Shown: positions 3,048 to 38,997, counted from the first letter of the stretch. The stretch: 64,000 nt of DNA from Pseudomonadota bacterium (GCA_018821785.1 JAHJLI010000039.1:8878-72877); one strand, 5' to 3'. The notes: a model not told the origin generated them from the sequence alone. Numbers and translations: made by a program.

Positions 3048-4948
3048 CTCGAACACTCTGCATCCCCTTCCGGGCACCCGTTGCAAAAAGAATGAAACTT
3101 CGGAGTGGACCATGTATTCCCACTTTTATCCGAGATAAAATTATACGACACAAAACGGCAGACACCATCGTTGTCTTTGTCTTTAAAAAGCACTGCCGCA
3201 CTCATTTTTCGATACTCAATTTTTGAATCGGTGTATCGGTTGTATGCCCAATCACCGGCGATAGCCACTTTGTCGATTTCAGAGGCTGATATCTTCGCTT
3301 GCGCCAGGGCCTTTTTAAATTGTTCGTGCAACTGGGCAGCGTCAGTTCCGGAATACATTTCTCGCGGAAACTGCGATCCGGCAGCAATGCGCTCGTCTTT
3401 TTGGACAATAAGGGAGAACTCTCCAATTGATATCGGTTCACGAGAGCGAAGCTGTCCTTGAACACTCCATAATTCAAAACGGACAGAGTGTGTGCCTGGT
3501 GACAAACCTTTTGTTGTCCGAAACCATGCCTCAGCCTCGCTCTTAAAGCCATCATCAGGGGGCAGCGGATGAGGAGCAAACTGCCAGGTTGTCCAGGTTT
3601 CCCCTGCTTGCCCCTTGAGATTACCGTTGCTGAAGACATTAAATCGATCCACCTTTTCTTTGCCGTCGATAAACAACCTGAATTCGTAACCGAAATCCCG
3701 GTTTTCCTGCGGTTCTCCATCACTTCCATAAACCGGAGTGTTACCGAGCGAATGATGGAGATAGAGTCTGCCAAAGATGGGGTCGCTCAATTGAAATGAC
3801 TTTTCAGGGGCAATCTGATCCTGGCCATCTAAACTTATTGGTTGTTTTGACCAGATCATTCGCCCTGCGTTGGCCCGATGCACCTTGCTGGTTGGGGGAA
3901 CGTCAGTATATCTGGCTTTGATCCGTTGCGCTGCAGCATCATTGGCCTCGTTTTGTGTATTTTTCCCCGCCTGGGCAGCAACTCCCGCCTCGCCCTTGAG
4001 CCTGGCTACTGCATCTTGTCCGCTCTCTAGCCTTAATTGCACCTGCTGATAAGCAACGTGACCGGGTTCGAAGCTGCCTGTGTAATTTTTTTGGAATTGT
4101 TCAAATTTATCTTGAGCAAATTGCAGGTCGCTCTTTACTCCCTCCAGATAGCTCCCAGGTTGGGAAGAATTTGCAGCAGTCTCGAGACGATGCTCGAGTA
4201 TATTCAGGGCACCGGCAATGGCGACGAGGTCTGCACCCATTTGCGCAGGCAAATCTTCAACTGCGCCTGAATTGCTCTCGAGAGGGGCCGTCGCGTTTTT
4301 TTGCACAAAGCCTGCAGTCATCGCCTGCTCTGCTGTATCGATTCTTTTTTTGAGAGCGATAATATCAGGGTGATTGGGGTCGAAACTGCCTTTGTAGTAT
4401 TCAAAAATATTTTTATACTCCACTCTGGCCTTGGTGAGGGAACCTTCCGCCCTTTCACCTTTCTCGGCAGCCTGATTTGCAATGACCAGGGCCCTGTCTG
4501 CAGCATCTATCCGACGGCGAATGTTTGCGGAGAGATCATTCTGTTCTTTACCCTGCGCAACTGTGATGCCAGGTGGCGTTTTCTCTTCGGTTTGCAGCTT
4601 TTCTCCCGTCGAAACCGCCGATCCGCTTTGTGGCTTCTGGCTCTTGCCTGATGCCTGTTCTGTGATATTTGCGATGCGATTTTTTAATTTTACCAGAACA
4701 GGATGAGCCGGATCGAAACTTCCACCATAATAGCTGAAGATAGCATCATATTCCTTTTGCGCAGACTTCACTTTAGCCGGTGCTAGTTCCAACTTTCCCG
4801 TCTTTATTTGGTCTTCGGCCTTATCAAGTTCCTGGTTGGCAGCATTCACTTTACGCATGATATTGGCGTTCAGATCTTGTGAAAAAACTGCATTCAGGTT
4901 GAAGAACAAAAGGGTGAAAAACATTGCCAGTACTGAAATAGCTTTCAT
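3044..4948 (-). CDS. Secreted hypothetical protein with three N-terminal helical repeats
   Basis: 634 aa ORF with signal peptide; repeated motif YYGGSFDPAHP / YYKGSFDPNHP / NYTGSFEPGHV; RBS-like AGGAG upstream. Confidence 0.8.
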   Translation of the reverse strand: MKAISVLAMFFTLLFFNLNAVFSQDLNANIMRKVNAANQELDKAEDQIKTGKLELAPAKVKSAQKEYDAIFSYYGGSFDPAHPVLVKLKNRIANITEQASGKSQKPQSGSAVSTGEKLQTEEKTPPGITVAQGKEQNDLSANIRRRIDAADRALVIANQAAEKGERAEGSLTKARVEYKNIFEYYKGSFDPNHPDIIALKKRIDTAEQAMTAGFVQKNATAPLESNSGAVEDLPAQMGADLVAIAGALNILEHRLETAANSSQPGSYLEGVKSDLQFAQDKFEQFQKNYTGSFEPGHVAYQQVQLRLESGQDAVARLKGEAGVAAQAGKNTQNEANDAAAQRIKARYTDVPPTSKVHRANAGRMIWSKQPISLDGQDQIAPEKSFQLSDPIFGRLYLHHSLGNTPVYGSDGEPQENRDFGYEFRLFIDGKEKVDRFNVFSNGNLKGQAGETWTTWQFAPHPLPPDDGFKSEAEAWFRTTKGLSPGTHSVRFELWSVQGQLRSREPISIGEFSLIVQKDERIAAGSQFPREMYSGTDAAQLHEQFKKALAQAKISASEIDKVAIAGDWAYNRYTDSKIEYRKMSAAVLFKDKDNDGVCRFVSYNFISDKSGNTWSTPKFHSFCNGCPEGDAECSR

Positions 4949-5065
4949 TTGTTTTCTCCTTTCAGATGCAACGGGAAACTCATTCCTTTAACAATAAAGG
5001 TTATTTTTCCCGCCTGGTGAACAGACATGGTCGGAAATTTCAGTCAGTCATTTTTATATTATAGT

Positions 5066-5690: not shown

Positions 5691-6207
5691 AACAAAAGGA
5701 CAACCAAGCCCAGATACGTTAAAACCGGTATCTTGATAACAGAACGGAACTGAAGTCCCAACCAACAATTTTTTCCCTTTTTAGAGCGCTTCCGCGCAAG
5801 ATAACACTCATCGCATCTTTTAGCTTCAGTCAGGGGACTGACGAAGCCGCTTATCTACAGGCAATCTAGGACATTTGCACCAGTGTCACAACACTAGAAG
5901 CACAGGATACCACACTGAATTAACGTACCAAGTCGATTGATCCTGCCAAGTTAGTCTGTACTCTATTTTATTACTCACCTGTATGGAAAGCATATTACCC
6001 GGAATGCCGGTCTTACCGTTTTTCCTGTATGGACGTTTTCATCGCAATAGGCTTCAATCCCATAACGGAATTAGTTTGCCAAAGCCGTAAAGAAAAGATA
6101 GTCTTTTCATACTACAGGTGGCCGATTAACTCTGGGCACCAGAGTTTCCAAAATATGCCTACAAAGGCAACCTGCAACCTTGTAACCCTTCCATCAAAGG
6201 AGTAACC

Positions 6208-6861: not shown

Positions 6862-7923
6862 TCAGATCTTCATTTGCTTCTTTACAGATTTGATGAAGCG
6901 TCCGAATGTTCTATCCTTCTTCCGTTTATCAACATACGACAGCTCATGGTACTCCGACTCATTCCTGAGCTTTATATAGCTTCTATAGCGATCATCAGTC
7001 AATGCGCCGCTTGTTACTGCGGCTCGAACCGCACAGCCGGGTTCCTGCATGTGACCACAATTCGGATAACGACAATTCTGGGAAAGCTGGCCGATGTCTT
7101 CGAAGCCCTGGTTGACCCCTTCGCTCGCTCCGAGAAGGCCCAGTTCTCGCATCCCAGGCGTATCAATCAACATGGAACCTTGATTAAGCACAATAAGCTG
7201 GCGGCGGGTAGTTGTATGAATGCCTTCTCCTGATCCACTCACGGCCTTTGTAGCAAAAGCGTCTTGCCCGATCAGACGGTTAAGGAGTGTTGTTTTGCCT
7301 ACCCCCGATGAACCGAGGAGACAATATGTTCTTCCCGCAACTAACACCTGCTGGAATTCGTCAAATCCTATGCCCGTGATATTGCTGAGGGCAAGGACTC
7401 TGGCTGTAGTGGTGCTCGACCTCATGGCAGCAAGCTTCTGTTCCAGTTCTTCGGGTGAGATCAAGTCCGTCTTGGTGAGAACAACAATCGGCTCAACACC
7501 CCCGTCTGCTGCCATCACCAAATACCGATCCATTCTCCGCACGTTGAAGTCAAAGTGGCACGACTGGACTATGAATGCGACGTCAATGTTGGCCGCAATC
7601 ATCTGTAGATCGATCTTTTCACCGGCCGATTTGCGGCGCAAAAAGGTCTTTCTCGGAAACACCTCATGAATAATTGCTTCAGTGTCGTTATTGTGATATT
7701 GCACTGTTACCCAATCTCCAACACAGGGCAGGTCAATCGAAGATTCTGCCTGGAAATAGAACTTCCCGGCGAGTTCAGCCGGGACTTCCCTGGTGAGATT
7801 TCTGATGAGGTATGAGCCGCGGTCAACTGCCGATATACGCGCAATATCCAGGCCCTCTTGACGCAAAGCACTGCCATGCAATTGAAACCATTGGTCGAAG
7901 CCCATATCATTTAATTTCATCAT
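6862..7923 (-). CDS. rsgA: Ribosome small subunit-dependent GTPase A (circularly permuted GTPase)
   Basis: LTKTD (G4), GSSGVGKT (G1), HTTT, DTPG (G3), C-terminal CRYPNCGHMQEPGC zinc finger. Confidence 0.92.
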   Translation of the reverse strand: MMKLNDMGFDQWFQLHGSALRQEGLDIARISAVDRGSYLIRNLTREVPAELAGKFYFQAESSIDLPCVGDWVTVQYHNNDTEAIIHEVFPRKTFLRRKSAGEKIDLQMIAANIDVAFIVQSCHFDFNVRRMDRYLVMAADGGVEPIVVLTKTDLISPEELEQKLAAMRSSTTTARVLALSNITGIGFDEFQQVLVAGRTYCLLGSSGVGKTTLLNRLIGQDAFATKAVSGSGEGIHTTTRRQLIVLNQGSMLIDTPGMRELGLLGASEGVNQGFEDIGQLSQNCRYPNCGHMQEPGCAVRAAVTSGALTDDRYRSYIKLRNESEYHELSYVDKRKKDRTFGRFIKSVKKQMKI

Positions 7924-7931
7924 ATATTGTC

Positions 7932-7990
7932 ACCCAACTCTGAACAGAGCGGCAGGCAGCTGTGATGGCCTGAGCGCATGCTCTTCTTCT
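7932..7990 (-). other. Weak attC-like remnant
   Basis: Minus strand ends GTTGGGT (R'-like) just upstream of rsgA; R'' side is degenerate (TAGAAG instead of YYYAAC). Confidence 0.3.
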
Positions 7991-8183
7991 ATTGATACTT
8001 TTTGAAATTGTATTTGATAGCAACTTTTGCTTTTTCTTCCGATGGAAGTGACACAAAATATTTTTTCCAGCCAGGACAAAAGTTAATGTGCCAACGCCAG
8101 AATCTTCCGGCAATTGACTTCGGCTGCTTGTCATATTTTGCTCGTAAACTGCAATTGCCACAATTATTCTCAGCCATTATCAT
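7989..8183 (-). CDS. Small Cys-containing hypothetical protein
   Basis: 64 aa; CGNC...RFWRWHINFCPGWKKY; GGAG RBS. Confidence 0.65.
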   Translation of the reverse strand: MIMAENNCGNCSLRAKYDKQPKSIAGRFWRWHINFCPGWKKYFVSLPSEEKAKVAIKYNFKKYQ

Positions 8184-8236
8184 ACTCCATTTTAAAAAAT
8201 AACCTATTAAGAGACTAAGGCATCAGAGCCCTTGCT

Positions 8237-8299
8237 GCCTAACATATATGTTTCGTTCACTCGCTGCTATCAATCGTCGCATGCAAAGGCCGGTTCGGC
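8237..8299 (-). other. attC-like site
   Basis: Minus strand GCCGAAC...GTTAGGC, 63 bp, with near-complementary R''/R' boxes; overlaps the DUF1835 3' end (PNRPLHAT read-through typical of cassettes). Confidence 0.55.
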
Positions 8300-9153
8300 A
8301 AAGCTGTAATCTTGAAGTCCTTGAGCAATACCGCACTTTCCCATTGAGGTAATCTTTCAGTGGGACCTTCGATCCACACCAGCGGAGGGACACGATCCGC
8401 CAGTCCGTTTATCTTGGCCCAAAGTGTCACATCTCCCCAGAATTGCGGTGGCGTATCAGCCGCAGCCACGGATGCGAAAATTTCCCCCGGTGTTTCGTTC
8501 CCGCCTCGAACTGCGGCCAAGGCAAGACGCTCAAGTCGGCCCAACCCGCTTGTCGGGTCAGGCTGTTCCTGAATCCATCGCCTTACGGCGGCGGAAATCC
8601 AGGGCAAGGGGGCCTCTATCATTGCCGACAATTCCACCAACATGGTTGAGGACTGAGTTGCGAATGCCTTGTCGACAAGAACCGCAAAGCCGAATTGCTC
8701 TTCGGTGACTGCAAGTCGGTTTTTATAGAGGGCTGCCAGTTGCTCCGGCAGCAGTTGTCCAAGACCATGAAACGGTACGATCCCGGGAAATGCATCAACG
8801 CAAAGAAGTTCCACATGCAAAATGCCCTTGTGAAGCAGGCAGGTGAGAATGTGGGCAAGCATGGACTGATCAAAAAGGCACGCGTCGAACCACAGGACGA
8901 TGCGCTCGTAGGTTGCGGTTTCCGCCAACTTCCGGTACTGGCTGCACAGTGTCTCCAGAATGAACTCCCTATCCAAACCTCCTGCAGTGGTTTCTTCTAA
9001 AAACAGTGCTCGCGCGCTGAGAGTGTCTTCATTCGGCCACCCAGGATCCCGGGGTCCATCGTATAGGATGTCGTGCCAGACGAATACTTCCCCGGGAAGT
9101 CCGGCTTTTGCCAGACTTCCTCCTGCGATGTCACCACTCGTGATATGAATCAA
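8257..9153 (-). CDS. DUF1835 domain protein
   Basis: MIHITSGDIAGGSL...WHDILYDGP...IVLWFDACLFDQSML. Confidence 0.75.
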   Translation of the reverse strand: MIHITSGDIAGGSLAKAGLPGEVFVWHDILYDGPRDPGWPNEDTLSARALFLEETTAGGLDREFILETLCSQYRKLAETATYERIVLWFDACLFDQSMLAHILTCLLHKGILHVELLCVDAFPGIVPFHGLGQLLPEQLAALYKNRLAVTEEQFGFAVLVDKAFATQSSTMLVELSAMIEAPLPWISAAVRRWIQEQPDPTSGLGRLERLALAAVRGGNETPGEIFASVAAADTPPQFWGDVTLWAKINGLADRVPPLVWIEGPTERLPQWESAVLLKDFKITALPNRPLHATIDSSE

Positions 9154-9608
9154 AAGACGTCAAAGTTCGAGGAATTGGATGCCCCATTATGAAGCCCCGA
9201 ATAAATTAATTGAGTTCTATCCCCGTCAATCCTCCAGATGTGATACACTCTGTCGATACGTTTTTTGTCAGAACCAAAGCCAATATAAAGGACCACATCA
9301 TACTCCTTTTCACTGGTAAAGAGGTTTGATGATTTATTGGCGGTATGGATTTCCCATGACTGCATTGGACCATACTTCGCAATTCTCGTTACCCAGGCTG
9401 CTGCATACTGCTCGGGGGAAATACGTTGTTTCAAGTCATTGTGGAAATTATCATAGGCTTCACGATACTTTCCAGTCGTGACCAGGGAAAAATGATTTTC
9501 CAACGCTATTTGCATTGATGCAATACTCTCCTGGGTGCTACCAATCATCTTGGTGATAAGCACTGCGGCGACAATCACCATGAGAATAGCACTGATGAGA
9601 ACTTTCAT
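9150..9608 (-). CDS. Hypothetical membrane-anchored/exported protein
   Basis: 152 aa with hydrophobic N-terminus; ATGA-coupled to the DUF1835 gene. Confidence 0.7.
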   Translation of the reverse strand: MKVLISAILMVIVAAVLITKMIGSTQESIASMQIALENHFSLVTTGKYREAYDNFHNDLKQRISPEQYAAAWVTRIAKYGPMQSWEIHTANKSSNLFTSEKEYDVVLYIGFGSDKKRIDRVYHIWRIDGDRTQLIYSGLHNGASNSSNFDVF

Positions 9609-9705: not shown

Positions 9706-10503
9706 TTATGGGACACAATACCATTTCAACTTATCGAAAACATTGAGCCATTGTTGATCAAACTCAACTTCAAGTGCGATTTTTACATTGGTTACAGGAT
9801 GAACAAAATCAAGTTTTTTAGCAAGCAACATTAAGCGGTTGAAACCAAAGTACTCTCGAAAAAATGGATTCTGCTTATTATCACCATAGTTGATATCACC
9901 AATAATTGGGTGGCGTAAATGAGCCAAATGTCGTCTAATTTGATGTCGACGGCCTGTGCTGGGTTCCAGCTTAATCAATGAGTAGCGAACAGTGTCAAAT
10001 TTACCCAATGGAATTGGCAGTGATGCGGTTAAGAGTGACTGGTAGGCAGTTTTGGCCTGTTGTGGCTCTTTATTTCGGCTGACATTTTGATCACCCAAGG
10101 TGTCGAGATTTTCTTTGAGTGGGTAGTCAATAGTCTCACTGCCTAATAAATGGCCACGAGTTAATGCGTAATATGTCTTCTTTATGGTTCTATCGGCAAA
10201 AGATTGCCCCATTAAGCGAGCGACTTCAACACTTAAAGCAAAGAGCAGAACCCCAGATGTTGGTCTGTCCAGTCTATGCACTGGGTATACGTATTGACCT
10301 ATTTGATCTCTAACAAGTTGTAAAGCGAAATATATTTCATCTTTATCCATATAGCTTCGGTGAACAAAGAGTCCCGCTGGTTTATTTACCGCGACTAAAT
10401 ATGCATCTTGATAGAGTATTTCCAGTATCGGCTTTGCCTCAATAGCCAGCCCTGACTCTCGAGCACAATCTCTTTGGCGCAAATCGAACCTCATTTGATT
10501 CAT
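9706..10503 (-). CDS. truC: tRNA pseudouridine(65) synthase TruC-like (RluA family); start uncertain
   Basis: VNKPAGLFVH, HRLDRPTSG (catalytic Asp), TGRRHQIRRHLAHLRHPIIGD, YGDNKQN; no S4 domain. Confidence 0.8.
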   Translation of the reverse strand: MNQMRFDLRQRDCARESGLAIEAKPILEILYQDAYLVAVNKPAGLFVHRSYMDKDEIYFALQLVRDQIGQYVYPVHRLDRPTSGVLLFALSVEVARLMGQSFADRTIKKTYYALTRGHLLGSETIDYPLKENLDTLGDQNVSRNKEPQQAKTAYQSLLTASLPIPLGKFDTVRYSLIKLEPSTGRRHQIRRHLAHLRHPIIGDINYGDNKQNPFFREYFGFNRLMLLAKKLDFVHPVTNVKIALEVEFDQQWLNVFDKLKWYCVP

Positions 10504-30473: not shown

Positions 30474-31271
30474 TTATTCACCACACCATACAGGAGTACG
30501 CTTTTCCATAAAAGCGGCAATCCCTTCTTTTGCATCTCGACTCATCATATTCTCGACCATCACTTGACTACAATATTCATAAGCGCTTCTAATATCTTTA
30601 TCGACCTGATCATAGAACGCCTTTTTGCCAATCTTAAGGGTGAGCGAAGATTTAGAAGCAATTCTTGCAGCCAAGTCATCAGTCACTTGTTCAAGTTGTT
30701 CTAGTGGTACGACTCGGTTAACCAGTCCAATTTCATAAGCACGTTGAGCCGAAATCATATCGCCGCACAGTAACATTTCCATTGCATGTTTTCTGGCTAC
30801 ATTACGAGATAACGCAACCATAGGGGTAGAGCAAAATAATCCGATGTTTACTCCCGGCGTAGAAAAACGTGCATTTTCTTCCGCTACAGCCAGATCACAA
30901 CTGGCAACCAGCTGACAGCCCGCAGCAGTTGCAATTCCGTGGACTTTGGCAATTACAGGTTTAGGCAAATGGGTAATTGCCAACATCAGTGTTGAACAAG
31001 TCCGGAACGTTTTTTCGTAAAATGTGCGATCTGAGTTGCTGCTCATTTCCTTAAGATCGTGGCCTGCGCAAAATCCTTTTCCGGAACCTCCTAAAATTAC
31101 GACATTAACCGAAGAATCAGTTGAAAGGACTTCAAATTCTCTGATCAACGCCTCCATACATTCAACGGATAAAGAATTGTATGCTTTGGGTCTATTGATT
31201 GTTATGTAACAGATCTTGTTTTTATCCTCTCTGATAATAAGGGAATTAGAAGTGGCTTGAGTGTCAGTCAT
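30474..31271 (-). CDS. Enoyl-CoA hydratase/isomerase family protein
   Basis: FCAGHDLKEM, AKVHGIATAAGCQLVASCD, TPGVNIGLFC, AKEGIAAFMEKR. Confidence 0.9.
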   Translation of the reverse strand: MTDTQATSNSLIIREDKNKICYITINRPKAYNSLSVECMEALIREFEVLSTDSSVNVVILGGSGKGFCAGHDLKEMSSNSDRTFYEKTFRTCSTLMLAITHLPKPVIAKVHGIATAAGCQLVASCDLAVAEENARFSTPGVNIGLFCSTPMVALSRNVARKHAMEMLLCGDMISAQRAYEIGLVNRVVPLEQLEQVTDDLAARIASKSSLTLKIGKKAFYDQVDKDIRSAYEYCSQVMVENMMSRDAKEGIAAFMEKRTPVWCGE

Positions 31272-31335: not shown

Positions 31336-31971
31336 TCAAATATATGCTACTGCCCTTACTGGGGAACCATCTGCATCTTCAAATTTTATTGGAAAGCAAG
31401 AAAAGTTAAAGGCAGATCCAGGCAAATGCAAAAGTTTGGTCAAATTCTCAACAATAATTATCTCTTTATGAAGCAGAATTTTATGAACCGGATAATCGTC
31501 AGATTCTGAATCATCCGCTGAAATAGTATCTAGACCTAGCCCTTTTAGCTTAAATTTACTCAACCATCTTGCAGCCTCTGTAGAGAGAACAGGATAATCA
31601 GAAAAGTACTTATCATCACCCCAATACTTGCTCCATCCAGTATGGATGAGTAAAAAATCAGTTTTTTCTATTTCTTTCCAATGAGGTTCTAATGATGAAA
31701 TATCTATTGTTTTTGATGAATCATTTTCAAAATTCAACCTAAGTCCAGTTCCATAAAAATGTTCAATTGCCAACATGTCGAGCGTCTGAGCATTTTTGAT
31801 TAAATGGGCTGGCGCATCAATATGCGTTCCTGTGTGTGAATACATTGTGATTTTTTTCTCAAGAAATCCAATTTCATCTATTGAGCATCCGGTTATGAAT
31901 ATCGGTTGCTCTGTGCCAGGATAAACAGGCATATTGGATGAAACAGTATGGCTTAAATCAACAATTCTCAT
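31336..31971 (-). CDS. Cyclase / kynurenine formamidase-like metal hydrolase
   Basis: MRIVDLSH, HTGTHIDAPAH (HxGTHxDxPxH), IVENL, DGSPVRAVA; ATG 31971 lies just after an attC-like site. Confidence 0.88.
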   Translation of the reverse strand: MRIVDLSHTVSSNMPVYPGTEQPIFITGCSIDEIGFLEKKITMYSHTGTHIDAPAHLIKNAQTLDMLAIEHFYGTGLRLNFENDSSKTIDISSLEPHWKEIEKTDFLLIHTGWSKYWGDDKYFSDYPVLSTEAARWLSKFKLKGLGLDTISADDSESDDYPVHKILLHKEIIIVENLTKLLHLPGSAFNFSCFPIKFEDADGSPVRAVAYI

Positions 31972-31993
31972 ATTGATATCTCTTTGTTTGGTT

Positions 31994-32060
31994 AAATAGC
32001 GCTTGAATTCACCGGCGCAGCGCACCATTATCGCTCAGCGCCGGTGGAATGATGGTAGGC
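31994..32060 (-). other. attC-like site (degenerate cores)
   Basis: Minus strand GCCTACC-ATCATTCCACCGGCGCTGAGCGATAATGGTGCGCTGCGCCGGTGAATTCAAGC-GCTATTT; perfect 9 bp inner stem CACCGGCGC/GCGCCGGTG. Confidence 0.65.
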
Positions 32061-32103
32061 TGACCGAGCGAAATGAACAAAAGCAGGTACCATATCGGTT
32101 AGA

Positions 32104-32745
32104 CTACTCATTTAGATAGATTTCCACACGCTCTTTGCCTTTGCCGATATTGTCTCGTTTCAGTTTAATTGAGCCGATCTCTCCTGTGCGCCTCACATGT
32201 GTGCCGCCGCATGATACACGTGCCAGCCCTTCGATCTCCCAATATCGCCTTTCATTGGCCTCATCATCGAATCCTGTCAGGATTTCAAGATCTGATCTGA
32301 TGATCCTGTTTGCTTCCTCAGCAAATTTCGGCAAAAAAGAAGAGATGCTTTGAGGCCATGCAAAATCGATTCGAGCCTTGTTTTGAGCAATGTGAGCCCC
32401 GACCTTCTCAACCCCATCGAGTTCTTTGTAAAAGAGTTCTAAAACCAGTTCTGCTGCAAAATGTAGCCGCATCAGTCGATATCGTCTGGCCCAATCAATC
32501 TCGATACCGACATTCTGCCCAAGGCTCAAGCCATGTTCTGGAGGCAGGGTGTACACAATCTCAAGCCCATCCTTCCGGGCAGATACAACGGGGATGCCTT
32601 TGATAGTTCCGTAGTCGCTCTCTTGACCACCAGAGAGCGCGAAAAAAATTGTTGATTCAAGCGTGATGTCAGAGCCATTGACTGAGGAGACGACAGTTTC
32701 ATGGCGTGTGCAATACGGATCCAGCCAAAATGCCTTTTGGGTCAT
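32104..32745 (-). CDS. alaX: Free-standing alanyl-tRNA editing protein (AlaX family)
   Basis: LESTIFFALSGGQESDYG, RLMRLHFAAE, SCGGTHV, KGKERVEI. Confidence 0.85.
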   Translation of the reverse strand: MTQKAFWLDPYCTRHETVVSSVNGSDITLESTIFFALSGGQESDYGTIKGIPVVSARKDGLEIVYTLPPEHGLSLGQNVGIEIDWARRYRLMRLHFAAELVLELFYKELDGVEKVGAHIAQNKARIDFAWPQSISSFLPKFAEEANRIIRSDLEILTGFDDEANERRYWEIEGLARVSCGGTHVRRTGEIGSIKLKRDNIGKGKERVEIYLNE

Positions 32746-32769
32746 ACGTTGTCGCATAGAGCTCCTGAA

Positions 32770-32832
32770 GCCCAAGGGTCCCGTTGAGCGGTGCGCCGCT
32801 TCAGGCGCGTCCACTGCAACGTCTGGTTTATC
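32770..32832 (-). other. attC-like site (degenerate R')
   Basis: Minus strand GATAAAC-CAGACGTTGCAGTGGACGCGCCTGAAGCGGCGCACCGCTCAACGGGACC-CTTGGGC. Confidence 0.55.
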
Positions 32833-32911
32833 ACGTGCATTATCTTGTCGGAAAATGTTAAAAAATGATATCCCAATTTTTCCCGCCTAAGCAACAATCG
32901 TTTCAGAAGCG

Positions 32912-33895
32912 TTAAAGCACTTTCAACAACTCGATAATTTTTACTTTCACTTTCGCTCCGTATTTGCCATCGACGAGCAACTGATGTGAGGCCTGGAACA
33001 GTTTGAGGGTGCTTCTTGTCTTTGGCCCGAATTTCCCGTCGACAGTAAGAGGAACAGCTTGAGGAAAAGTCTTGTTCAAAGCCGTCTGCAACCATTTGAT
33101 CGCATAAATTGAGCTAAAACCGAGGGGCTCCCAGTCAAGAGATATTGCGACCACTCGTTTGTCAAAATCAGGAAAGTTCGCTTGACTAAAAACCGTTTTT
33201 TCACTGGTCTGAGGCAGTGTCAGATGAATTTCACTGATCTCTACATAGGTGCTATCCGTATCCTTTCCCGTAAGAGAATAAAGATAGTTCGAATCGATAC
33301 AGTCGAAACCCCAACACGAATTGATCTGCGACACATGAAGCCTAGTCAGCTGTCCGGTGACCCCACTGTCCCCCGCATCGGAATATTTGTAATAGCAGCA
33401 GGGAATACTGTTGCCGTTTGAAACAAACAGCGTTGTCCCCATATCAAAGGCGAAAACACCAGGCTCTAGACCGGTAGCAATATCTGGTCCGCCAGGGTTG
33501 CAAGGGTCTGGCATCGTTAATTGATTTTTATTGTAAGAATGGTAGACAACCGCCACGCCGTTTTGAATCATATAGATAGTCGTTCCATTTCCGCCGGAGG
33601 TGCTGAAATAGAGATTGTGCTCCCCATTGTACTTTCTATAGGCAATATCCCTGAGGAAAACATTATTGTTTTGGGTCGAGTAGAGACTCAGCGTCGTTTT
33701 CAGCGCAAGGTCGATAAGCAAAATATCATGATGGCGGCAAATATAGAGTTGGTTTCCCTGACCAACCGCCACACTCACTATGGTATGCAAATTGGATTGA
33801 AAGACAGGAAATTCCTTAAGATCGCAAATAAGTATGCAGATTCCTTCTTCCACTCTGTAAATTTTCCCGAGCTTAAGATACACAAAAGAAACCAT
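32912..33895 (-). CDS. Hypothetical protein with C-terminal peptidoglycan-binding (PG_binding_1-like) domain
   Basis: C-terminus IKWLQTALNK...VDGKFGPKTRSTLKLFQASHQLLVDGKYG; beta-rich N-terminal region; AGGAGG RBS. Confidence 0.75.
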   Translation of the reverse strand: MVSFVYLKLGKIYRVEEGICILICDLKEFPVFQSNLHTIVSVAVGQGNQLYICRHHDILLIDLALKTTLSLYSTQNNNVFLRDIAYRKYNGEHNLYFSTSGGNGTTIYMIQNGVAVVYHSYNKNQLTMPDPCNPGGPDIATGLEPGVFAFDMGTTLFVSNGNSIPCCYYKYSDAGDSGVTGQLTRLHVSQINSCWGFDCIDSNYLYSLTGKDTDSTYVEISEIHLTLPQTSEKTVFSQANFPDFDKRVVAISLDWEPLGFSSIYAIKWLQTALNKTFPQAVPLTVDGKFGPKTRSTLKLFQASHQLLVDGKYGAKVKVKIIELLKVL

Positions 33896-33955
33896 TTTCC
33901 CCTCCTAAGTTGAATCGATCGGCGGATTGACGATGAGATCATTCTCATCGCGTGA

Positions 33956-34012
33956 GCACAACGTGGCGGCTCTGGGGCGGCGAGGTACAAGCCGACCTTA
34001 AGAGCCTATTTT
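33956..34012 (-). other. attC-like remnant (R' intact, R'' lost)
   Basis: Minus strand ...GGCTCTTAAGGTCGGCTTGTACCTCGCCGCCCCAGAGCCGCCAC-GTTGTGC. Confidence 0.5.
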
Positions 34013-34024
34013 TTCTGCATTTTA

Positions 34025-34447
34025 TTACACTTTCCATGTGCCGATCGCCAAGAATATTGTTCCGGCACAACAAAACATGATGTCTGCCCAATACGAGACA
34101 GGTTCTGTCTCACGAAAATAGATACGGTTGCGCCCCCTCGAAGAAAAACCATTACAGATATCCACATGCGCAATGAGAAGAAATGGAATCGCCATAATGG
34201 TGGTGATAATGCCCAAAATATTTTTTCGGAAAAAGATTGCCAGAACACCATTTATTAAAAGCACCGCCAAAAGTGTCCCGATGATCAAAAGGGCATGACC
34301 TTTAAAGAATTCGCGTCGCCATAATGGGCCACGCATTGGAGGACGTTTCCAAACTGAGAAAGATTTTAAGTAATCACATTCTGTTTGATTATCATTTGTA
34401 CTTGACTCAATTTGCCTTAGTTTTTTTTCTCTCGATTTCTTTCCCAT
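34025..34447 (-). CDS. Hypothetical membrane protein
   Basis: MGKKSREKK start 7 nt after an attC-like site; about three hydrophobic segments. Confidence 0.65.
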   Translation of the reverse strand: MGKKSREKKLRQIESSTNDNQTECDYLKSFSVWKRPPMRGPLWRREFFKGHALLIIGTLLAVLLINGVLAIFFRKNILGIITTIMAIPFLLIAHVDICNGFSSRGRNRIYFRETEPVSYWADIMFCCAGTIFLAIGTWKV

Positions 34448-34453
34448 GATATT

Positions 34454-34500
34454 CTGCAACGGCAAATGCACCAGCTTGACTGGTGCATTTTATTGTTAGT
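34454..34500 (-). other. Short attC-like site
   Basis: Minus strand ACTAAC-AATAAAATGCACCAGTCAAGCTGGTGCATTTGCC-GTTGCAG; perfect stem AAATGCACCAG/CTGGTGCATTT. Confidence 0.5.
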
Positions 34501-34577
34501 AGCGATTTGACAATCGCCGAATGTCCACAATTCAAGCCTGACCCATCGACCCATCATTTTCTCTCTGGCCAGGTGGT

Positions 34578-34622
34578 TTGGTGGTGTGGTAGCCGGGGGA
34601 ATTTCTCCCCCGGCTACCCAAT
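34578..34622 (+). mobile_element. Group IIC intron 3'-end remnant (end of DV + DVI)
   Basis: TTGGTGGTGTGG...GCCGGGGGAATTTCTCCCCCGGCTACCCAAT; near-identical to 36335-36379. Confidence 0.7.
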
Positions 34623-34774
34623 TGGTCTTCCGGCCGTAAGGATTCTGCTTCACAACGCCTTCTTCACGTCGTAACCGCACTCGCGATCGACCGGGTCACA
34701 GAACGCACGACTATCGTCGACGCTTGGCTCACTCACAGGACATCGGTGGTCTCCATCAAAAGCACAGGAGGCAC

Positions 34775-35506
34775 CTACCAGGGCATGCGCTCGCCTTTGT
34801 GACGCAGCTGGCCATGTGGAAATTGCTCGCGGGTGATGGTCACCAGCTCGACGGCCGTGCTCGCGCCCTCGTCGACCTCCATCGGCGCAGCCTGGCTCCC
34901 GAGATCGGTTTTCACCCATCCGGGATGGGCAGCGGCGACCGCTATCCCTTTGCTCGCCAGCGTTTTTGATTGAATCAGTGTGAGCATGTCGAGCCCGGCC
35001 TTCGAGGTCGAGTATCCCACGGCCATGAAGCCCCCGATTTCCTCCCACATGCTCTCGGCGGCACCCATCGAACCGAGCATCGACGACTGGTTGATTACCC
35101 GAGCGTCGTCGCTGCGCGAGAGGAGGGGAACGAGGGCCTCGGTGATCGCGTAGGGTGCGATGAGGTTGACCTCGAGGGTGCGGCGAATCTTGTCAGCATT
35201 GGTCGGCTTTCCGTCCCACTCAAGGGCGATCCCGGCGTTATTCACGAGCACGTCCAGCTTGCCGAAAGTCGTCTCGAGATAGCTCACAAGGCTGGCGATG
35301 TGGTCGGGGTTGGTGACCTCGAGACGAACAGTGTGGGCGTCGCACCCTGCAGCCACGAGTTCCGCCACAGCCGCACCCCCCGCCTGCTCGTCCCTCGCCG
35401 TGATGACCACCGTGTATCCGAGAGCGCCCAGCTGCCGCCCGATCTCCTTGCCCAAGCCCTTGTTCGCTCCCGTGATGAGCACTACCTTGCCGTTCTTCGT
35501 TGCCAT
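34775..35506 (-). CDS. SDR family oxidoreductase (carbonyl reductase-like)
   Basis: TGANKGLG, LDVLVNNAG, YSTSK, HPGWVKTD; AGGAGG RBS; high GC. Confidence 0.9.
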   Translation of the reverse strand: MATKNGKVVLITGANKGLGKEIGRQLGALGYTVVITARDEQAGGAAVAELVAAGCDAHTVRLEVTNPDHIASLVSYLETTFGKLDVLVNNAGIALEWDGKPTNADKIRRTLEVNLIAPYAITEALVPLLSRSDDARVINQSSMLGSMGAAESMWEEIGGFMAVGYSTSKAGLDMLTLIQSKTLASKGIAVAAAHPGWVKTDLGSQAAPMEVDEGASTAVELVTITREQFPHGQLRHKGERMPW

Positions 35507-35609
35507 GCTTACGTCCTCCTTACTGCCGCCTGGTGTGTTCACCCTTTGAGCGCGAAGGCGCGGCTACCCCCACACGGGCAAGGGTGGAATCTGGGCTCAA
35601 CGCCAGTCC

Positions 35610-35680
35610 ACCCAACGACTCCGGTCACTGGTTGCCATGGAGCGAAGCGGAATGGCAATCCGGTGCACTGGTTTTTTAAA
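35610..35680 (-). other. attC-like site (R'' mutated)
   Basis: Minus strand TTTAAAA-AACCAGTGCACCGGATTGCCATTCCGCTTCGCTCCATGGCAACCAGTGACCGGAGTC-GTTGGGT. Confidence 0.65.
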
Positions 35681-35684
35681 CATC

Positions 35685-36149
35685 CTATCGTAAACGTAAC
35701 GAATAGAGGTAGTCCGCTCCGTTATCGGGCTTCTTAGACTGCCTTATCCATCCATACGATTCATATAGACTTATGGCCGCTGTCATATTCCTGTTTGTTG
35801 TCAATACAACCTCTTCATATCCACCCTCAATAGCTGTAAACAGCAAAGTTCTAATTAGCATATGTCCAACTCCCTGCCCCCGAAAACTTGACCTCACATA
35901 GAAGCCGGTCATTTCTGCGACAGAAGAGGGTCTCGGTCTCAGGATGATGGATCCTACAATCTGTTCCTCATCAAACGCGACGAATTCATGAAAAGGGATT
36001 TCTTTCTCTTGACCAAATTTGGCCAAAGCATGATCAATATTCTCAGGGTCTGGTTCTATGCCCAAGGCTCTCATAATTTCAAAGGCAAAAGCCGTCACCT
36101 CTTCATTATCTTCAGGCCTGGCTTTACGAATCTGTATATTGGATTTCAT
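35685..36149 (-). CDS. GNAT family acetyltransferase
   Basis: IRKARPED, FYVRSSFRGQGVGHMLI (motif A), NMTAAISLYESYGW. Confidence 0.88.
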   Translation of the reverse strand: MKSNIQIRKARPEDNEEVTAFAFEIMRALGIEPDPENIDHALAKFGQEKEIPFHEFVAFDEEQIVGSIILRPRPSSVAEMTGFYVRSSFRGQGVGHMLIRTLLFTAIEGGYEEVVLTTNRNMTAAISLYESYGWIRQSKKPDNGADYLYSLRLR

Positions 36150-36239
36150 AGGTTTTTAGCTTGTTAATCACAGATTCATTCGAAGCATTATTATGTTATA
36201 CAATTAAACTGTTACCTCATTGCTTTCGGTATTTTCTGC

Positions 36240-36379
36240 AGTTGTCGCCTTCTTGCTGTCAAAGAGCTGCGGATATACTTCATCCGGCTACGGTCCGATG
36301 TTCTATGGGAACCGCCAAGTGCGGACCCGCTTGCTTGGTGGTGTGGGGGCTGGGGGAGAAAAACCCCCGGCTACCCGAT
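36240..36379 (+). mobile_element. Group IIC intron 3'-end remnant (possible ORF tail + DV + DVI)
   Basis: DV GAACCGCCAAGTGCGGACCCGCTTGCTTGGTGGTGT (36309-36344): stem ACCGCCAAG/CTTGGTGGT, class-C CGC triad. DVI GGGGGCTGGGGGAGAAAAACCCCCGGCT-A-CCCGAT with bulged A and terminal AT. Confidence 0.85.
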
Positions 36380-36414
36380 TGTCTTTTGTCTAACTAAATG
36401 ATATCGAAAACCTT

Positions 36415-37383
36415 TTACTCAACAAGAATTAAATCAATACGGTTTTTGTTGCTGTCTGCTATTGAATGAATCGCTACCCGAATATGTTCGCCTTGCTTAA
36501 AACGAGTAGAAAAATCGCTCACCAGTGTAGACCTGGGAATTATTCCTTCTGTTCCTGTTTGCAGGGAAATAAAAACCCCCTCTTTTGGACTAATCTTTTT
36601 GACAATCCCTTTGGCAATCAGCGCATTCGTTGATGCAGTTATAATTGAACGCTTTGGAAAATGAGAGTCGGTCCCCTGCCTAGTCGAAATTACCGGCGCT
36701 GTTTTTGATGATAATGCTCGATCATCTTCTTTCTCTATGAGGCGATAAGTTTCTTTGTTATTGCTATGGTTAAATGCTTGGAACAGTCCTTTGGCAGCAT
36801 TTTGATAAGGTAAATATGCCTCTTGATGGGTCAACACAGTAAACCATATAATTCCATGACCTGTAACAATTAGCCAAAAAACTAATTGACAGGGAAGTTT
36901 TTGTATTTTGTGCCGAAAAAAAATCTGCGCAAGCAATGCGCCAGGCCAACCGCCTAATGTCTCCAAAAGGTGCAATCTTTTTTCAGGAGTTCGTTGTAGC
37001 CCTGCTTGAGCTGCGCGCTTATCTAAACTATATACCCAAATTGTCAGCAAACTCATGGCGGCATAAATTGAGAGGAGATGAAAAGGAAGAATTCGTTGAA
37101 AGACCAAGCACACATAAATTACAAAGAACAGGGAAAGACAAAGCCAGATGAAGGTAAAATATGACCATGCCAGGCCTTTGATTTTAGGGGAGGATGCGTA
37201 TAACCGTTTTTTCTCATCCACCTTGTCTTCATATGTCAACACGTCACCATTTTTTGGTCGACGTTGGTAATGAGGTAATGATTTGACATGGAAAAAAGCA
37301 TCCTTCGTCCCATTAGTTGGACAAATAAATCCGTATCCCTTGTCATCATCCCAACGTGTAAGGGTGCCTTGTTTTCGCTCCAT
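36415..37383 (-). CDS. Cold-shock domain + DUF1294 + C-terminal S1-like domain protein
   Basis: GTLTRWDDDKGYGFI...AFFHVKSL; YSLDKRAAQ...RTPEKRLHLLETLGGWPGALLAQIFFRHK; C-terminal GIVKKI...GVFISL..GTEGIIPRSTL...FKQGEHIRVAI...RIDL. Confidence 0.8.
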   Translation of the reverse strand: MERKQGTLTRWDDDKGYGFICPTNGTKDAFFHVKSLPHYQRRPKNGDVLTYEDKVDEKKRLYASSPKIKGLAWSYFTFIWLCLSLFFVIYVCLVFQRILPFHLLSIYAAMSLLTIWVYSLDKRAAQAGLQRTPEKRLHLLETLGGWPGALLAQIFFRHKIQKLPCQLVFWLIVTGHGIIWFTVLTHQEAYLPYQNAAKGLFQAFNHSNNKETYRLIEKEDDRALSSKTAPVISTRQGTDSHFPKRSIITASTNALIAKGIVKKISPKEGVFISLQTGTEGIIPRSTLVSDFSTRFKQGEHIRVAIHSIADSNKNRIDLILVE

Positions 37384-37416
37384 ACACTCCGTTCCTCGTT
37401 TGTCTTTTTACGGTAA

Positions 37417-37480
37417 AAGCAACGCGCTGCTCACCGGACCCGCGTCGTTTGCAGTGTCCGCGGGGAGCAGGAGGTTAAAT
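37417..37480 (-). other. attC-like site
   Basis: Minus strand ATTTAAC-CTCCTGCTCCCCGCGGACACTGCAAACGACGCGGGTCCGGTGAGCAGCGC-GTTGCTT; the TAA in R'' is the stop of the upstream frame. Confidence 0.7.
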
Positions 37481-38044
37481 TAGTTTTTTATTTTCAAATT
37501 CTGAATACGCATAGAATTTATGCACATGTTTGCTTGCTTCAAATAATCCATGGCTTATTAACAAATCTACTGCCCAGATTTTTGATTGTCTGTTAAACTA
37601 GTCAATTTCTTCCTGGGAGACATTTGAAACATCTTTGAAATTTGTCTTTTTGTCAATTTCATCAAAGAAAAGAGATCGAAATATTTCTTCTCTATTTCCG
37701 TTGCCGTCTATAATGGTTACCTGATGCTCTCGCCCTTTTGCAGATATCCGAGAAGAATGAACAGCAAAGTTTCTTGCTTTAGAAAGTAGCTTGACAAGTG
37801 GATCTCGAAGCATTTCCGATTTTTCTGGACTTTCACACCACATATTTTTGCCAAAAATCTTTTTTACGTCTCCATTAATGTTGTCAACTTATAGATTGAT
37901 ATACGCTTAAGGCTGCTCTGAAATACCAAATGGCCATTTGGTCATTTTTTGAAGTCGAGTGCTTTTTTATCTGATCACAAAAATAGCGGCAACGTAATAC
38001 TCGATCAAAGCTTTCTGGCAAAAGTTCAAATGAATGTCATGCAT
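37475..38044 (-). pseudogene. Disrupted hypothetical cassette gene; 5' boundary uncertain
   Basis: ORF 37843-37598 stops at TAG but continues in frame (FNRQSKIWAVDLL...KKLI) to a TAA inside the attC R''; further stops/frameshifts upstream. Confidence 0.6.
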
Positions 38045-38096: not shown

Positions 38097-38135
38097 GGAT
38101 ACATTTTTAGAAGGGCTGGAAAAAGAAAAAGCCGG
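38097..38135. repeat. Direct repeat A flanking higBA
   Basis: GGATACATTTTTAGAAGGGCTGGAAAAAGAAAAAGCCGG; same as 38848-38887 except one T in the homopolymer. Confidence 0.92.
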
Positions 38136-38166
38136 GGTTTACCTAAAGGAAATTATATTTTTTATA

Positions 38167-38463
38167 TCAATGAAGAGCTTGGGCAAGAAAAGGTTTGATG
38201 TTTAGTTCGTGTTTGTGTTGCTCTACTTGCCAGAGATCATAGGCAACCTGGTGGCCCATCCAACTTTCCGGGCTTCCACCAAAGGCGATGGACAAACGAA
38301 ACGCCATTTCCGGTGAAATGCCGGAATTGCCGTTTACGATTTTCGACAGAGTTTTACGGCTGACGCCAAGAGCAAGCGCGGCTTTAGTGACAGACAGGCC
38401 CATGGGGTTAAGCCATAGCCCACTGAGAATTTCTCCTGGATGGGGAGGGTTGTGCATTCTCAT
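38167..38463 (-). CDS. higA: HigA antitoxin (XRE HTH)
   Basis: [11 protein letters not shown]...[36 protein letters not shown]...Q..YDLWQ. Confidence 0.92.
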
Positions 38464-38471
38464 AATCTCAC

Positions 38472-38750
38472 CTAATGATAATCTTCATAATCAACAACTT
38501 CAGCATCTCCGTTCTCAAACCGGAAAGTCACCCGCCAATTTGCCTGCACGGTTACAGACCAGGTCTTTTTTCTTCCGCCCTTCAATTCGTGGAGGGCAAG
38601 AGTCGGGATTTGCATATCTTCAACTGTTCTGGCTTGATTAAGTTGGGCCAGGATAAGCCGCAACCGCTCGGCATGTTTTGCTTGGATTCCCGCCATGCTC
38701 CCGGTAAGGAAGAATTTTTTCAATCCTTTATGCGTAAAACTCCTTATCAT
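38472..38750 (-). CDS. higB: HigB toxin (RelE/ParE fold)
   Basis: [14 protein letters not shown]...[38 protein letters not shown]; toxin-first order. Confidence 0.92.
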
Positions 38751-38755
38751 GAACT

Positions 38756-38800
38756 ATTGTAACCAATATGTTCTCACTATGCAACCATGTTGGTTACAAT
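38756..38800 (-). promoter_or_regulatory. Probable HigA operator pair
   Basis: 11 bp inverted repeat ATTGTAACCAA...TTGGTTACAAT containing the near-palindrome TGCAACCA-TGT-TGGTTACA, immediately upstream of higB. Confidence 0.65.
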
Positions 38801-38847
38801 TTTTTGCTGGATTTGGTAGAGAAGGACGAGACAGCGTGCAGAGTACA

Positions 38848-38887
38848 GGATACATTTTTTAGAAGGGCTGGAAAAAGAAAAAGCCGG
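38848..38887. repeat. Direct repeat B flanking higBA
   Basis: GGATACATTTTTTAGAAGGGCTGGAAAAAGAAAAAGCCGG; overlaps the tRNA-Pro terminator tail. Confidence 0.92.
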
Positions 38888-38913
38888 ACAGCTTGTAACT
38901 GTCCGGCTTCTTT
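38871..38913 (-). terminator. Intrinsic terminator after tRNA-Pro
   Basis: 11 bp stem AAGCCGGACAG/CTGTCCGGCTT followed by a T-tract on the minus strand. Confidence 0.8.
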
Positions 38914-38919
38914 GAATAG

Positions 38920-38997
38920 TGGTCGGGGCGGAGTGATTCGAACACTCGACCTCCTGCTCCCAAGGCAGGCGCGCTAACCAGGCTGCGCTACGCCCCG
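38920..38997 (-). tRNA. tRNA-Pro (TGG)
   Basis: CGGGGCGTAGCGCAGCCTGGTTAGCGCG-CCTGC-CTTGGGA-GCAGG...GTTCGAATC...CGCCCCG-ACCA. Confidence 0.97.

Follow-up and report, generated by a model that had tools for sequence, protein, structure and literature searches.

The locus raises the question of what a run of unrelated genes, about 7 kb long, encoded entirely on the minus strand and varying in GC content from 34 to 63%, represents. In the window, that is, the whole 64,000-nucleotide stretch of DNA analysed here, this run extends from about 31.3 to 38.0 kb and very probably is an integron gene-cassette cluster without a neighbouring integron integrase (CALIN). Such clusters of attC sites lacking an integron integrase were reportedly defined by Cury et al. 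in 2016 with IntegronFinder. Each unit of the array would originally have comprised a gene lacking its own promoter with an attC site behind it, and an integron integrase would have inserted and excised these units, the folded bottom strand recombining at the G|TT point. The genome is Desulfobulbales-like, and the array occupies a hypervariable site in it, immediately after tRNA-Pro.

Genes of the array and its surroundings

The initial annotation listed eight co-oriented genes, and minus-strand ORFs are found at the coordinates it claimed, with Pfam families assigned. From the first cassette to the last gene of the run, they are:

37478-37843, minus strand: pseudogene cassette (six-frame translation; an 81-aa ORF at 37598-37843 stops at an in-frame TAG, 37598-37600)
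36415-37383, minus strand: CSD, DUF1294 and S1-like membrane protein gene, cassette (Pfam)
35685-36149, minus strand: GNAT acetyltransferase cassette gene (Pfam)
34775-35506, minus strand: short-chain dehydrogenase (SDR) cassette gene (Pfam adh_short; 63% GC)
34025-34447, minus strand: predicted membrane protein cassette gene, 140 aa (ORF)
32912-33895, minus strand: PG_binding_1 protein gene with a C-terminal peptidoglycan-binding domain (Pfam)
32104-32745, minus strand: AlaX-like (tRNA_SAD) cassette gene (Pfam)
31336-31971, minus strand: putative cyclase (kynurenine-formamidase-like) gene (Pfam Cyclase; 34% GC)

The pseudogene frame runs past the TAG to a TAA within the R'' box ATTTAAC of the site that follows; Pfam gives no family for the read-through product or for the 140-aa protein. 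The abrupt GC shifts described in the same annotation are real: GC is ~0.34 in the cyclase gene, 0.49 in AlaX, 0.63 in SDR and 0.40-0.44 in GNAT and CSD, against a window background of 0.45-0.55.

Two features lie on the upstream side of the array:

38101-38900, minus strand: higB-higA module (Pfam HigB-like_toxin and HTH_3), between the array and tRNA-Pro
38920-38997, minus strand: tRNA-Pro(TGG) (ARAGORN)

The higBA module has no attC-model match and is bracketed by a ~45-bp direct repeat (D9), a copy of the end portion of the tRNA-Pro terminator. The region ahead of the first cassette contains higBA, tRNA-Pro, tRNA-Asn and core genes shared with relatives, and the layout of a complete integron (intI together with attI and Pc preceding the cassettes) is absent at the locus. 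The earlier statement that no intI is visible in the window stands: the best tblastn match of IntI1 to the whole 64-kb window has E=3.9, Pfam detects no integrase domain in the array ORFs, and no integron integrase lies within 4 kb.

In relatives with an anchor protein 80-84% identical, homology ends 2-10 nt past tRNA-Pro (blastn break at window positions 38910-38918), and beyond this point the three lineages compared (L081; L082-L085; L086-L088) each carry a different cargo. This cargo consists of defence genes, an ISL3 transposase or other genes; it is non-integron and has no attC-model matches, so the locus is not an integron platform as such. The array accounts for the mosaic GC and gene content beside tRNA-Pro, and its genes are flagged as horizontally acquired cargo rather than core metabolism.

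attC-derived sites in the gaps

attC-derived sites occupy gaps of the array. The following candidates were recognised, in the same order as the genes:

37417-37480, minus strand: attC-like site S1, ATTTAAC ... GTTGCTT, 64 nt, both cores intact, after the pseudogene and before the CSD cassette
36154-36201, minus strand: degenerate short attC remnant S2, GTATAAC ... GCTAAAA, 48 nt, immediately upstream of the GNAT start codon
35610-35681, minus strand: attC site S3, GTTTAAA ... GTTGGGT, 72 nt, R'' AAC>AAA
34454-34501, minus strand: short attC-like site S4, TACTAAC ... GTTGCAG, 48 nt, perfect 11-bp stem, both cores intact
33956-34016, minus strand: possible dead attC, unconfirmed, an imperfect 39-nt palindrome then GTTGTGC (DNA fold), with R'' not recognisable and no match to the attC models
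32814-32863, minus strand: possible attC remnant, unconfirmed, TTTTAAC ... GTTGCAG, 50 nt, cores present, stem decayed, 3.4 bits with R2
31994-32104, minus strand: attC site S5

These sites were evaluated with three attC covariance models, built from 13 (R1) and 22 (R2) class 1 integron sites and from 15 environmental attCs, none of them homologous to the window's own sites (R3); both strands of the 64 kb were searched with filters off. On attCs outside its 13-site training set, R1 gives 19-82 bits (40-82 bits for those of aadA1, qacL, HAD and cmlA1, and 19.3 bits for the divergent estX site), and no match above 12 bits was obtained in ~210 kb of non-array DNA. The top window matches of R1 (19.8 and 9.4 bits) and of R2 (23.9 and 12.5 bits) fall on S5, over 31994-32065, and on S3, whereas R3 matches S5, S3, S4 and S1 with 22.7, 17.4, 10.0 and 9.8 bits, the last two over their full length. 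All these matches are in array gaps and on the coding strand. Four of the six R3 matches with E<=10 fall in this compartment, which makes up ~1.3% of the search space; a binomial estimate puts the chance of such concentration at ~1e-6. The palindromes that had been noticed in the gaps therefore exceed chance, the window's best attC-model matches being located there with all three models.

The S5 match at 31994-32065 (E 7.7e-4 with R2, up to ~1e-3) and S3 at 35610-35681 (E 0.038 with R3, 0.98 with R2) are 3.5 kb apart, so at least two covariance-model attCs lie within the 4 kb used to delimit CALINs, with the proviso that custom-built models were used rather than that of IntegronFinder and that the E-values are rough and calculated for the 64-kb window. 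At genome-wide scale, only 31994-32065 would stay near significance. By score, 34454-34501 and 37417-37480 (~10 bits) are in the noise range and count only via position, strand and full-length alignment.

Architecture offers a second view of the same gaps. In a scan of the window for architecture alone (NNNNAAC, spacer, single hairpin, spacer, GTTNNNN), 34454-34501 ranked first and 37417-37480 second, S4 being the sole match of the strict scan in 64 kb. As to the features that define attC (AAC/GTT cores, an imperfect palindrome, 50-150 nt), the cores are present in these two sites, of which 34454-34501 is 48 nt long and bulge-free, while the best-scoring site, 31994-32065, has neither canonical triplet beside its L box. 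Strict RYYYAAC...GTTRRRY pairs are absent, and three array gaps lack a convincing attC site. The cyclase gene is not followed by an attC, its 64-nt downstream gap having no hairpin in the DNA fold. Start codons lie close behind several R' boxes, as had been claimed, with ATG 6 nt (34447), 6 nt (36149), 22 nt (31971) and 33 nt (37383) after R'.

Cassette boundaries and recurrence of units

At least three genes, AlaX, GNAT and CSD-DUF1294, have cassette-type boundaries at R'. The first two are found elsewhere in genuine attC arrays, accompanied by the same attC, and their gene-attC units recur in different contexts. Homology between contexts breaks off at R' in all three, an indirect sign that an integron integrase may have recombined them at G|TT.

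In the AlaX unit, the R'' box of S5 is a canonical GTCTAAC that overlaps the stop codon and is followed by a ~45-nt insertion, beyond which come L'' TCCACCGG, L' GCCGGTGA and a dead R', GCTATTT. In L182 (88% nucleotide identity), the corresponding attC is compact and canonical, shows the landmarks of S5 and ends GGTTAGC. L105 shares 91% DNA identity with the window over 32761-32003, the stretch leading up to R', and its AlaX site also lacks GTT; in L106, homology stops in the loop, so that the 3' half of the site is missing there. The unit is found in the contexts of L105, L106, L182, L108/L109 and L111. Across the AlaX metagenome loci (334 kb), all 24 R2 matches are on the gene strand, and L109 carries 6 attCs in 5.2 kb, with AlaX flanked by GTTAAGC and GTTAGCC.

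The metagenome arrays L185 and L186, as well as contig L187, contain the GNAT homologues (73-75% identity, tblastn). The counterpart of S3 after these genes reads TTTAAC in L185 and L186 and TTTGAC in L187, and homology stops at R'; the attC is thus kept with the gene in 4 contexts. Paired cells make up 81% in S3, whereas slid controls reach 18-37%. S2 has no model match of its own and is, by eye, collinear with the 48-nt sites that precede the GNAT homologues in L185 and L186, the L186 counterpart scoring 12.5 bits with R2. L186 contains three further attC matches as well as a site (4949-4996) of the same design as S4, which has an ATG 6 nt downstream.

For CSD-DUF1294, the closest homologue, L188 (85% identical), has DNA in common with the window only between the G|TT point and the stop codon, homology beginning at 37422, the first T past the G of the S1 R' box. 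More distant homologues of this gene, at 67% identity, are ordinary chromosomal genes, which counts against the cassette reading.

Group II intron stubs

Two further elements are antisense to the array:

36300-36380, plus strand: 5'-truncated group II intron stub A, domains V-VI (Rfam RF00029, 41.7 bits against a gathering threshold of 40; E 2.7e-6), 34 nt beyond the CSD stop codon
34569-34622, plus strand: group II intron stub B, comprising domain VI and the 3' half of domain V (it matches stub A at 75% identity as direct repeat D1; no separate Rfam match), between the SDR gene and S4

Over 81 nt, stub A matches at 81% identity the 3' end of an IIC-attC intron, the one carried by the pWLK-NDM class 1 integron (L098); over 60 nt, its identity to the intron ends of array L185 is 87%. 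It ends GAU, and the terminus of stub B is CCCAAU (RAY-type). The structural hallmarks of a group IIC-attC intron, a catalytic domain V and a domain VI with a bulged A and a RAY terminus, are present. Only the last 54-81 nt of the introns survive, and a tblastn search with the L098 LtrA protein detected no reverse-transcriptase remnant in the window. Two introns that appear to be of the group IIC-attC type, a class assignment drawn from 81 nt only, thus seem to have inserted antisense between a gene and its attC, leaving 5'-truncated 3' stubs. The antisense orientation and gene-intron-attC order, published for IIC-attC introns (PMC3001079, PMC7923331), fit the stubs, the 5' junction having been lost by truncation. 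Introns of this class insert into the attC bottom strand at TTGT/T within R''. The 3' exons of the stubs, TGTCT and TGGTC, start with T but misfit the canonical T+RRRY remainder of R'', whereas the control junction in L098, TTGT/intron/TAGGC, fits exactly.

A proposal mentioned in PMC7923331 holds that IIC-attC introns join attC sites to resident genes. The CSD-DUF1294 unit, which is followed by stub A in place of an attC of its own, has homologues at 67% identity in ordinary chromosomal contexts; together with the start of homology at G|TT, these features fit that proposal and would allow the unit to be read as a snapshot of cassette birth, a reading that we consider very unlikely.

Erosion of the array and alternative explanations

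An accompanying annotation held that every site is damaged, which is wrong given that 34454-34501 and 37417-37480 retain AAC and GTT; with both cores kept, these two sites could in principle still be used as substrates by an integrase acting in trans. Elsewhere, invariant triplets have been lost (AAC>AAA at 35675; GTT>GCT at ~31999 and ~36159), one cassette is a pseudogene, one site carries the 45-nt insertion, and the intron stubs are devoid of reverse transcriptase. From the lost triplets, the insertion, the pseudogene and the lack of intI/attI upstream of the first cassette, we infer that shuffling of the array has ceased. The recurrence of GTT>GCT in two R' boxes and the bulge-free 48-nt sites could, though improbably, reflect sites kept for another role, for example at transcript ends, rather than random decay.

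The array might instead be owned by, or served in trans by, a functional integrase encoded elsewhere, with the intact-site cassettes still being mobilised. Two sites do keep AAC and GTT along with good stems, and the AlaX module is present in three different contexts among close relatives at 88-91% nucleotide identity, which suggests fairly recent movement. However, attC recognition requires extrahelical bases, and the perfect stem of S4 has none; the invariant triplets are gone from several sites, with the AlaX site compromised in L105 and L106 as well, and the region upstream of the first cassette holds tRNA genes and conserved core genes rather than intI or attI. We regard this alternative as unlikely. 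An ordinary tRNA-adjacent genomic island built by unrelated horizontal transfers, with terminators or gene-linked hairpins merely resembling attC, would agree with the general hot spot past tRNA-Pro in relatives, the absence of strict core pairs, the gaps without a site and the 45-bp repeat around higBA, which is not an integron feature, but it is highly improbable because the attC-model matches are confined to coding-strand gaps, homologous genes in arrays with several attCs are followed by the same hairpins and lose homology at R', the intron stubs match a class 1 integron intron, and no T-runs follow the hairpins. The orphaned cassette array proposed in the initial annotation is supported, with at least two attC covariance-model matches and synteny that is not conserved among relatives, the lack of an integrase being established for the 64-kb window only.

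Comparison with known systems

CALINs and truncated attC-associated introns have already been described, and the present array is an added example rather than a new principle. Its attC family (L'' CACCGG, L' CCGGTG, as short as 48 nt) is one that this Desulfobulbales-like lineage shares with environmental arrays and that models trained on clinical integrons alone under-score, and the array illustrates array erosion through invariant-triplet point mutations, insertions, intron scars and pseudogenes.

Like other CALINs, a term also used in PMC7923331, the array combines co-oriented promoterless genes, attC sites <4 kb apart, no intI nearby and heterogeneous genes and GC, and a toxin-antitoxin module adjoins it. 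Unlike them, it immediately follows a tRNA gene, several of its invariant triplets are mutated, one site is split by an insertion and three gaps have no recognisable site, so that IntegronFinder may report only one or two sites. With the arrays of sedentary chromosomal integrons, for which the metagenome contigs L109 and L186 stand here, it shares the attC family (48-90 nt), cassette genes (AlaX 79%, GNAT 74%) and the single-strand orientation of its gene-attC units; in those arrays, most AAC/GTT cores are intact and model scores are higher, whereas the window's array is degraded and without a platform. The stubs resemble group IIC-attC introns of the S.ma.I2 lineage (PMC3001079) in being antisense to the cassettes, between gene and attC, with a domain V-VI region 81-87% identical to integron-borne copies, and differ from them in having no reverse-transcriptase remnant and 3' exons without the canonical TRRRY remainder of R''. 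They are also like the truncated introns of the Halorhodospira halochloris CALIN (PMC7923331), being 5'-truncated with the 3' end left, as in H.ha.F1/F2 and UHB.F1.

Gene content of the array

The region at about 31.3-38.0 kb of the window, adjoining a tRNA-Pro gene, contains eight minus-strand open reading frames, all co-oriented, with mutually unrelated Pfam assignments. These encode a putative cyclase, an AlaX-like tRNA_SAD protein, a PG_binding_1 protein, a small membrane protein without an assigned family, a short-chain dehydrogenase/reductase (SDR), a GNAT protein, a CSD+DUF1294+S1 protein and an orphan of 81 aa, the reading frame of which continues beyond an in-frame TAG as far as a TAA within ATTTAAC. 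The GC content ranges from 0.34 in the cyclase gene up to 0.63 in the SDR gene, against a background of 0.45-0.55. The array is bounded on the right by higA/higB, tRNA-Pro(TGG) and tRNA-Asn, and on the left by genes for an enoyl-CoA hydratase and a D-Ala-D-Ala carboxypeptidase and by a flavodoxin-like gene. A tblastn search with IntI1 detected no integron integrase within the 64-kb window. Thus, the unrelated co-oriented genes, the abrupt GC shifts and the lack of intI in the window, all proposed in the initial annotation, are borne out. Exact look-ups of three window proteins yielded no match. The features discussed below are as follows.

31994-32104, minus strand: attC-like site S5, downstream of the AlaX gene
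34454-34501, minus strand: attC-like site S4, 48 nt
34569-34622, plus strand: group II intron 3' end, stub B
35610-35681, minus strand: attC-like site S3
36300-36380, plus strand: group II intron 3' end, stub A
37417-37480, minus strand: attC-like site S1

attC-like sites in the gaps between the genes

A strict scan for RYYYAAC ... GTTRRRY gives 0 matches in the array region; on real class 1 integrons, the same scan recovers only about half of the bona fide attCs, missing those of blaVIM-2, arr-3 and dfrA5, so that its null result in the array is uninformative. The first relaxed energy scan had a 50-nt minimum and was therefore blind to the 48-nt site S4. The E-values quoted here are rough, and all three covariance models are home-made: R1 from 13 attCs delimited in class 1 integrons on plasmids, R2 from 22 sites, and R3 from 15 environmental sites, none homologous to the window's own sites. 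On attCs outside its training set, R1 scores 19-82 bits (19.3 bits for the divergent estX site), and in about 210 kb outside arrays its scores never exceed 12 bits. All 22 attC model matches with E<=0.05 across 104 kb of plasmid loci lie on the cassette strand.

The window was searched with these models on both strands with filters off. R1 finds only two matches in the whole window, 31994-32060 (19.8 bits, E 0.015) and 35610-35681 (9.4 bits), and R2 finds the same two sites at 23.9 bits (E 7.7e-4) and 12.5 bits; both are on the coding strand, within gaps between array genes, and the remaining array gaps contain no meaningful match with either model. R3 recovers S5 (22.7 bits, E 9.5e-4) and S3 (17.4 bits, E 0.038) and additionally matches S4 (10.0 bits) and S1 (9.8 bits), all four being full-length minus-strand matches within gaps. 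Thus, the presence of attC-like sites in the gaps, as originally noticed, holds up, with at least two covariance-model matches under both R2 and R3. Four of the six R3 matches fall within about 1.3% of the search space, for which a binomial estimate gives a chance of about 1e-6. The two off-array matches (11.7 and 10.8 bits) both skip the interior; the former, at 5918-5956 on the minus strand (GACTAAC...GTTAATT), may be noise. A second cassette-like cluster suggested at 6.9-9.6 kb (6862-9608) has no match with R1, R2 or R3 at E<=10.

A sequence-independent architecture scan (AAC, spacer, single hairpin, spacer, GTT) ranks S4 first and S1 second in the window, in the same score range as true attCs; control DNA yields about 4 comparable matches per 100 kb. 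Three array gaps contain only unconfirmed, possible attC remnants. The 48-nt S4, which lacks bulged bases, has counterparts with the same length and a 5-6-nt loop in two arrays bearing GNAT homologues, L186 (4949-4996) and L185 (about 4945-4995). attCs described in the literature are generally about 57 nt and longer, and these sites fall below that length.

The same cassettes in other genomes

Cassette relatives were compared for the AlaX, GNAT and CSD-DUF1294 genes. AlaX homologues in metagenome contigs are flanked by attC matches, 24 of 24 on the gene strand (R2, 334 kb). One such contig, L109, has six attC sites in 5.2 kb and an AlaX with 79% aa identity to the window gene, bordered by GTTAAGC upstream and GCCAAAC...GTTAGCC downstream. 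At the locus L182 (88% nt identity), a compact canonical site directly follows the AlaX stop codon, TCGAAC-CCAG-TCCACCGG-loop-GCCGGTGA-...-GGTTAGC. S5 shares these landmarks (TAGTCTAAC, located at the stop codon, then TCCACCGG and GCCGGTGA) and differs from the L182 site by an insertion of about 45 nt after R'' and by GCTATTT replacing GTT.

In the close relative L105, the DNA corresponding to window 32761-32003 is 91% identical, starting 16 nt upstream of the ATG and reaching R'. The AlaX unit has a livF fragment on one side there and, on the other, a homologue (truC) of window gene 9706-10503, so single cassettes do occur outside arrays in this lineage. L106 represents a third context of the AlaX module. 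L105, too, lacks the GTT of the AlaX site, and L106 lacks the entire 3' half, so that part of the decay predates the split of these genomes. Across L105 1-3657 (87-91% nt identity), the AlaX cassette and the gene for a truC-like pseudouridine synthase converge; the window homologue of the latter is 22 kb from AlaX. A HipA-like gene with an HTH gene upstream also lies next to the cassette.

GNAT homologues with 73-75% identity (tblastn) reside in the co-oriented small-gene arrays L185 and L186, the latter with further attC matches at 25.7, 20.4 and 12.5 bits. The same 72-nt site is present 3' of the GNAT gene in all four contexts: GTTTAAA...GTTGGGT in the window, ATTTAAC...GTTGGCC in L185, GTTTAAC...ATTCTCA in L186 and GTTTGAC...GTTGCTC in L187. 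Sequence similarity among these loci stops at R'. The hairpin is paired in 81% of cells vs 18-37% in slid controls (4 sequences), with 1 compensatory pair, four sequences being too few to show covariation. The CSD-DUF1294 locus L188 (85% identical) has DNA in common with the window between 37422 and the stop codon, 37422 being the T directly behind the G in the R' box GTTGCTT of site 37480-37417; homologues at 67% identity occupy ordinary chromosomal neighbourhoods.

The tRNA-Pro locus in relatives

A 283-aa protein is encoded to the right of the tRNAs; assemblies of the Desulforhopalus/Desulfobulbaceae type contain relatives of it with 80-84% identity. Three lineages were compared at this locus (L081; L082-L085; L086-L088), and in all of them the order of arginase, acyltransferase-hydrolase, esterase, SDR, 283-aa protein, tRNA-Asn and tRNA-Pro is conserved. 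Nucleotide homology with the window ends at 38910-38918, just beyond tRNA-Pro. Past this point, every relative has its own terminator and then unrelated genes: defence-like ones (helicase/MZB/UvrD/NERD), small hypothetical ones, those of a two-component system, or an ISL3 transposase gene. Protein-level comparison of this cargo with the window reveals no synteny left of tRNA-Pro. The break and the differing cargo place the array in a hypervariable spot, and conserved synteny of its genes, which would speak against an integron array, is not seen in the three lineages. At the same spot, L081 12183-20852 encodes DEAD-helicase, MZB (DUF1998), UvrD-like and NERD proteins and looks like a defence island.

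The best matches of the enoyl-CoA hydratase (30474-31271), at no more than 71% identity, come from Dadabacteria, Chlorobium and Gammaproteobacteria MAGs and, being from mixed phyla, gave no relatives. Judging from these matches, this gene adjoining the array was probably also acquired, in which case the variable region may reach further left than 31336. Flanking higB-higA, and nothing else, are two direct copies of a sequence of about 45 bp (38101-38145 and 38856-38900). The repeated sequence begins within the terminator stem of tRNA-Pro, in its 3' half, and continues across the T-tract; between the copies there is neither an attC model match nor a recombinase.

Probable erosion of the array and group II intron remnants

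Taken together, these observations are consistent with an integron-derived cassette array, now in decay, the platform of which was lost or never present here. Decay is indicated by AAC>AAA and two GTT>GCT changes, along with an insertion, a pseudogene and 5'-truncated introns; S4 and S1 still look structurally competent.

The introns are represented by stubs A and B, the latter a second, shorter copy, both antisense to the array and each located between a gene and the attC-like site downstream. Rfam RF00029 matches 36310-36379 (+) at 41.7 bits (gathering score 40) on a 2-kb slice; an Rfam run over 14 kb missed the intron because of its filters. A tblastn search of the window with the intron reverse transcriptase found no remnant of this gene for either stub, and the 3' exons (TGTCT, TGGTC) do not match the canonical R'' remainder. 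The segment 37384-37457 (families D4/D5), considered as a third copy of the intron repeat, was rejected, its two halves being in reverse order.

Stub A matches intron ends in L185 at 87% identity, and in that array a stub is similarly placed, 18 nt after a cassette gene. Two stretches of L185 (2530-2700 and 7830-8000), each at least 170 nt long, are identical and consist of a gene 3' end and an antisense intron end, one of them joined to a fragmented RT/maturase; in this related array they represent either a duplication or an assembly repeat. In the control plasmid pWLK-NDM, a full IIC-attC intron is inserted antisense in a class 1 integron with the junctions TTGT/intron/TAGGC, an orientation and junctions that agree with the literature (PMC3001079, PMC7923331), and stub A is 81% identical to the last 81 nt of that intron.
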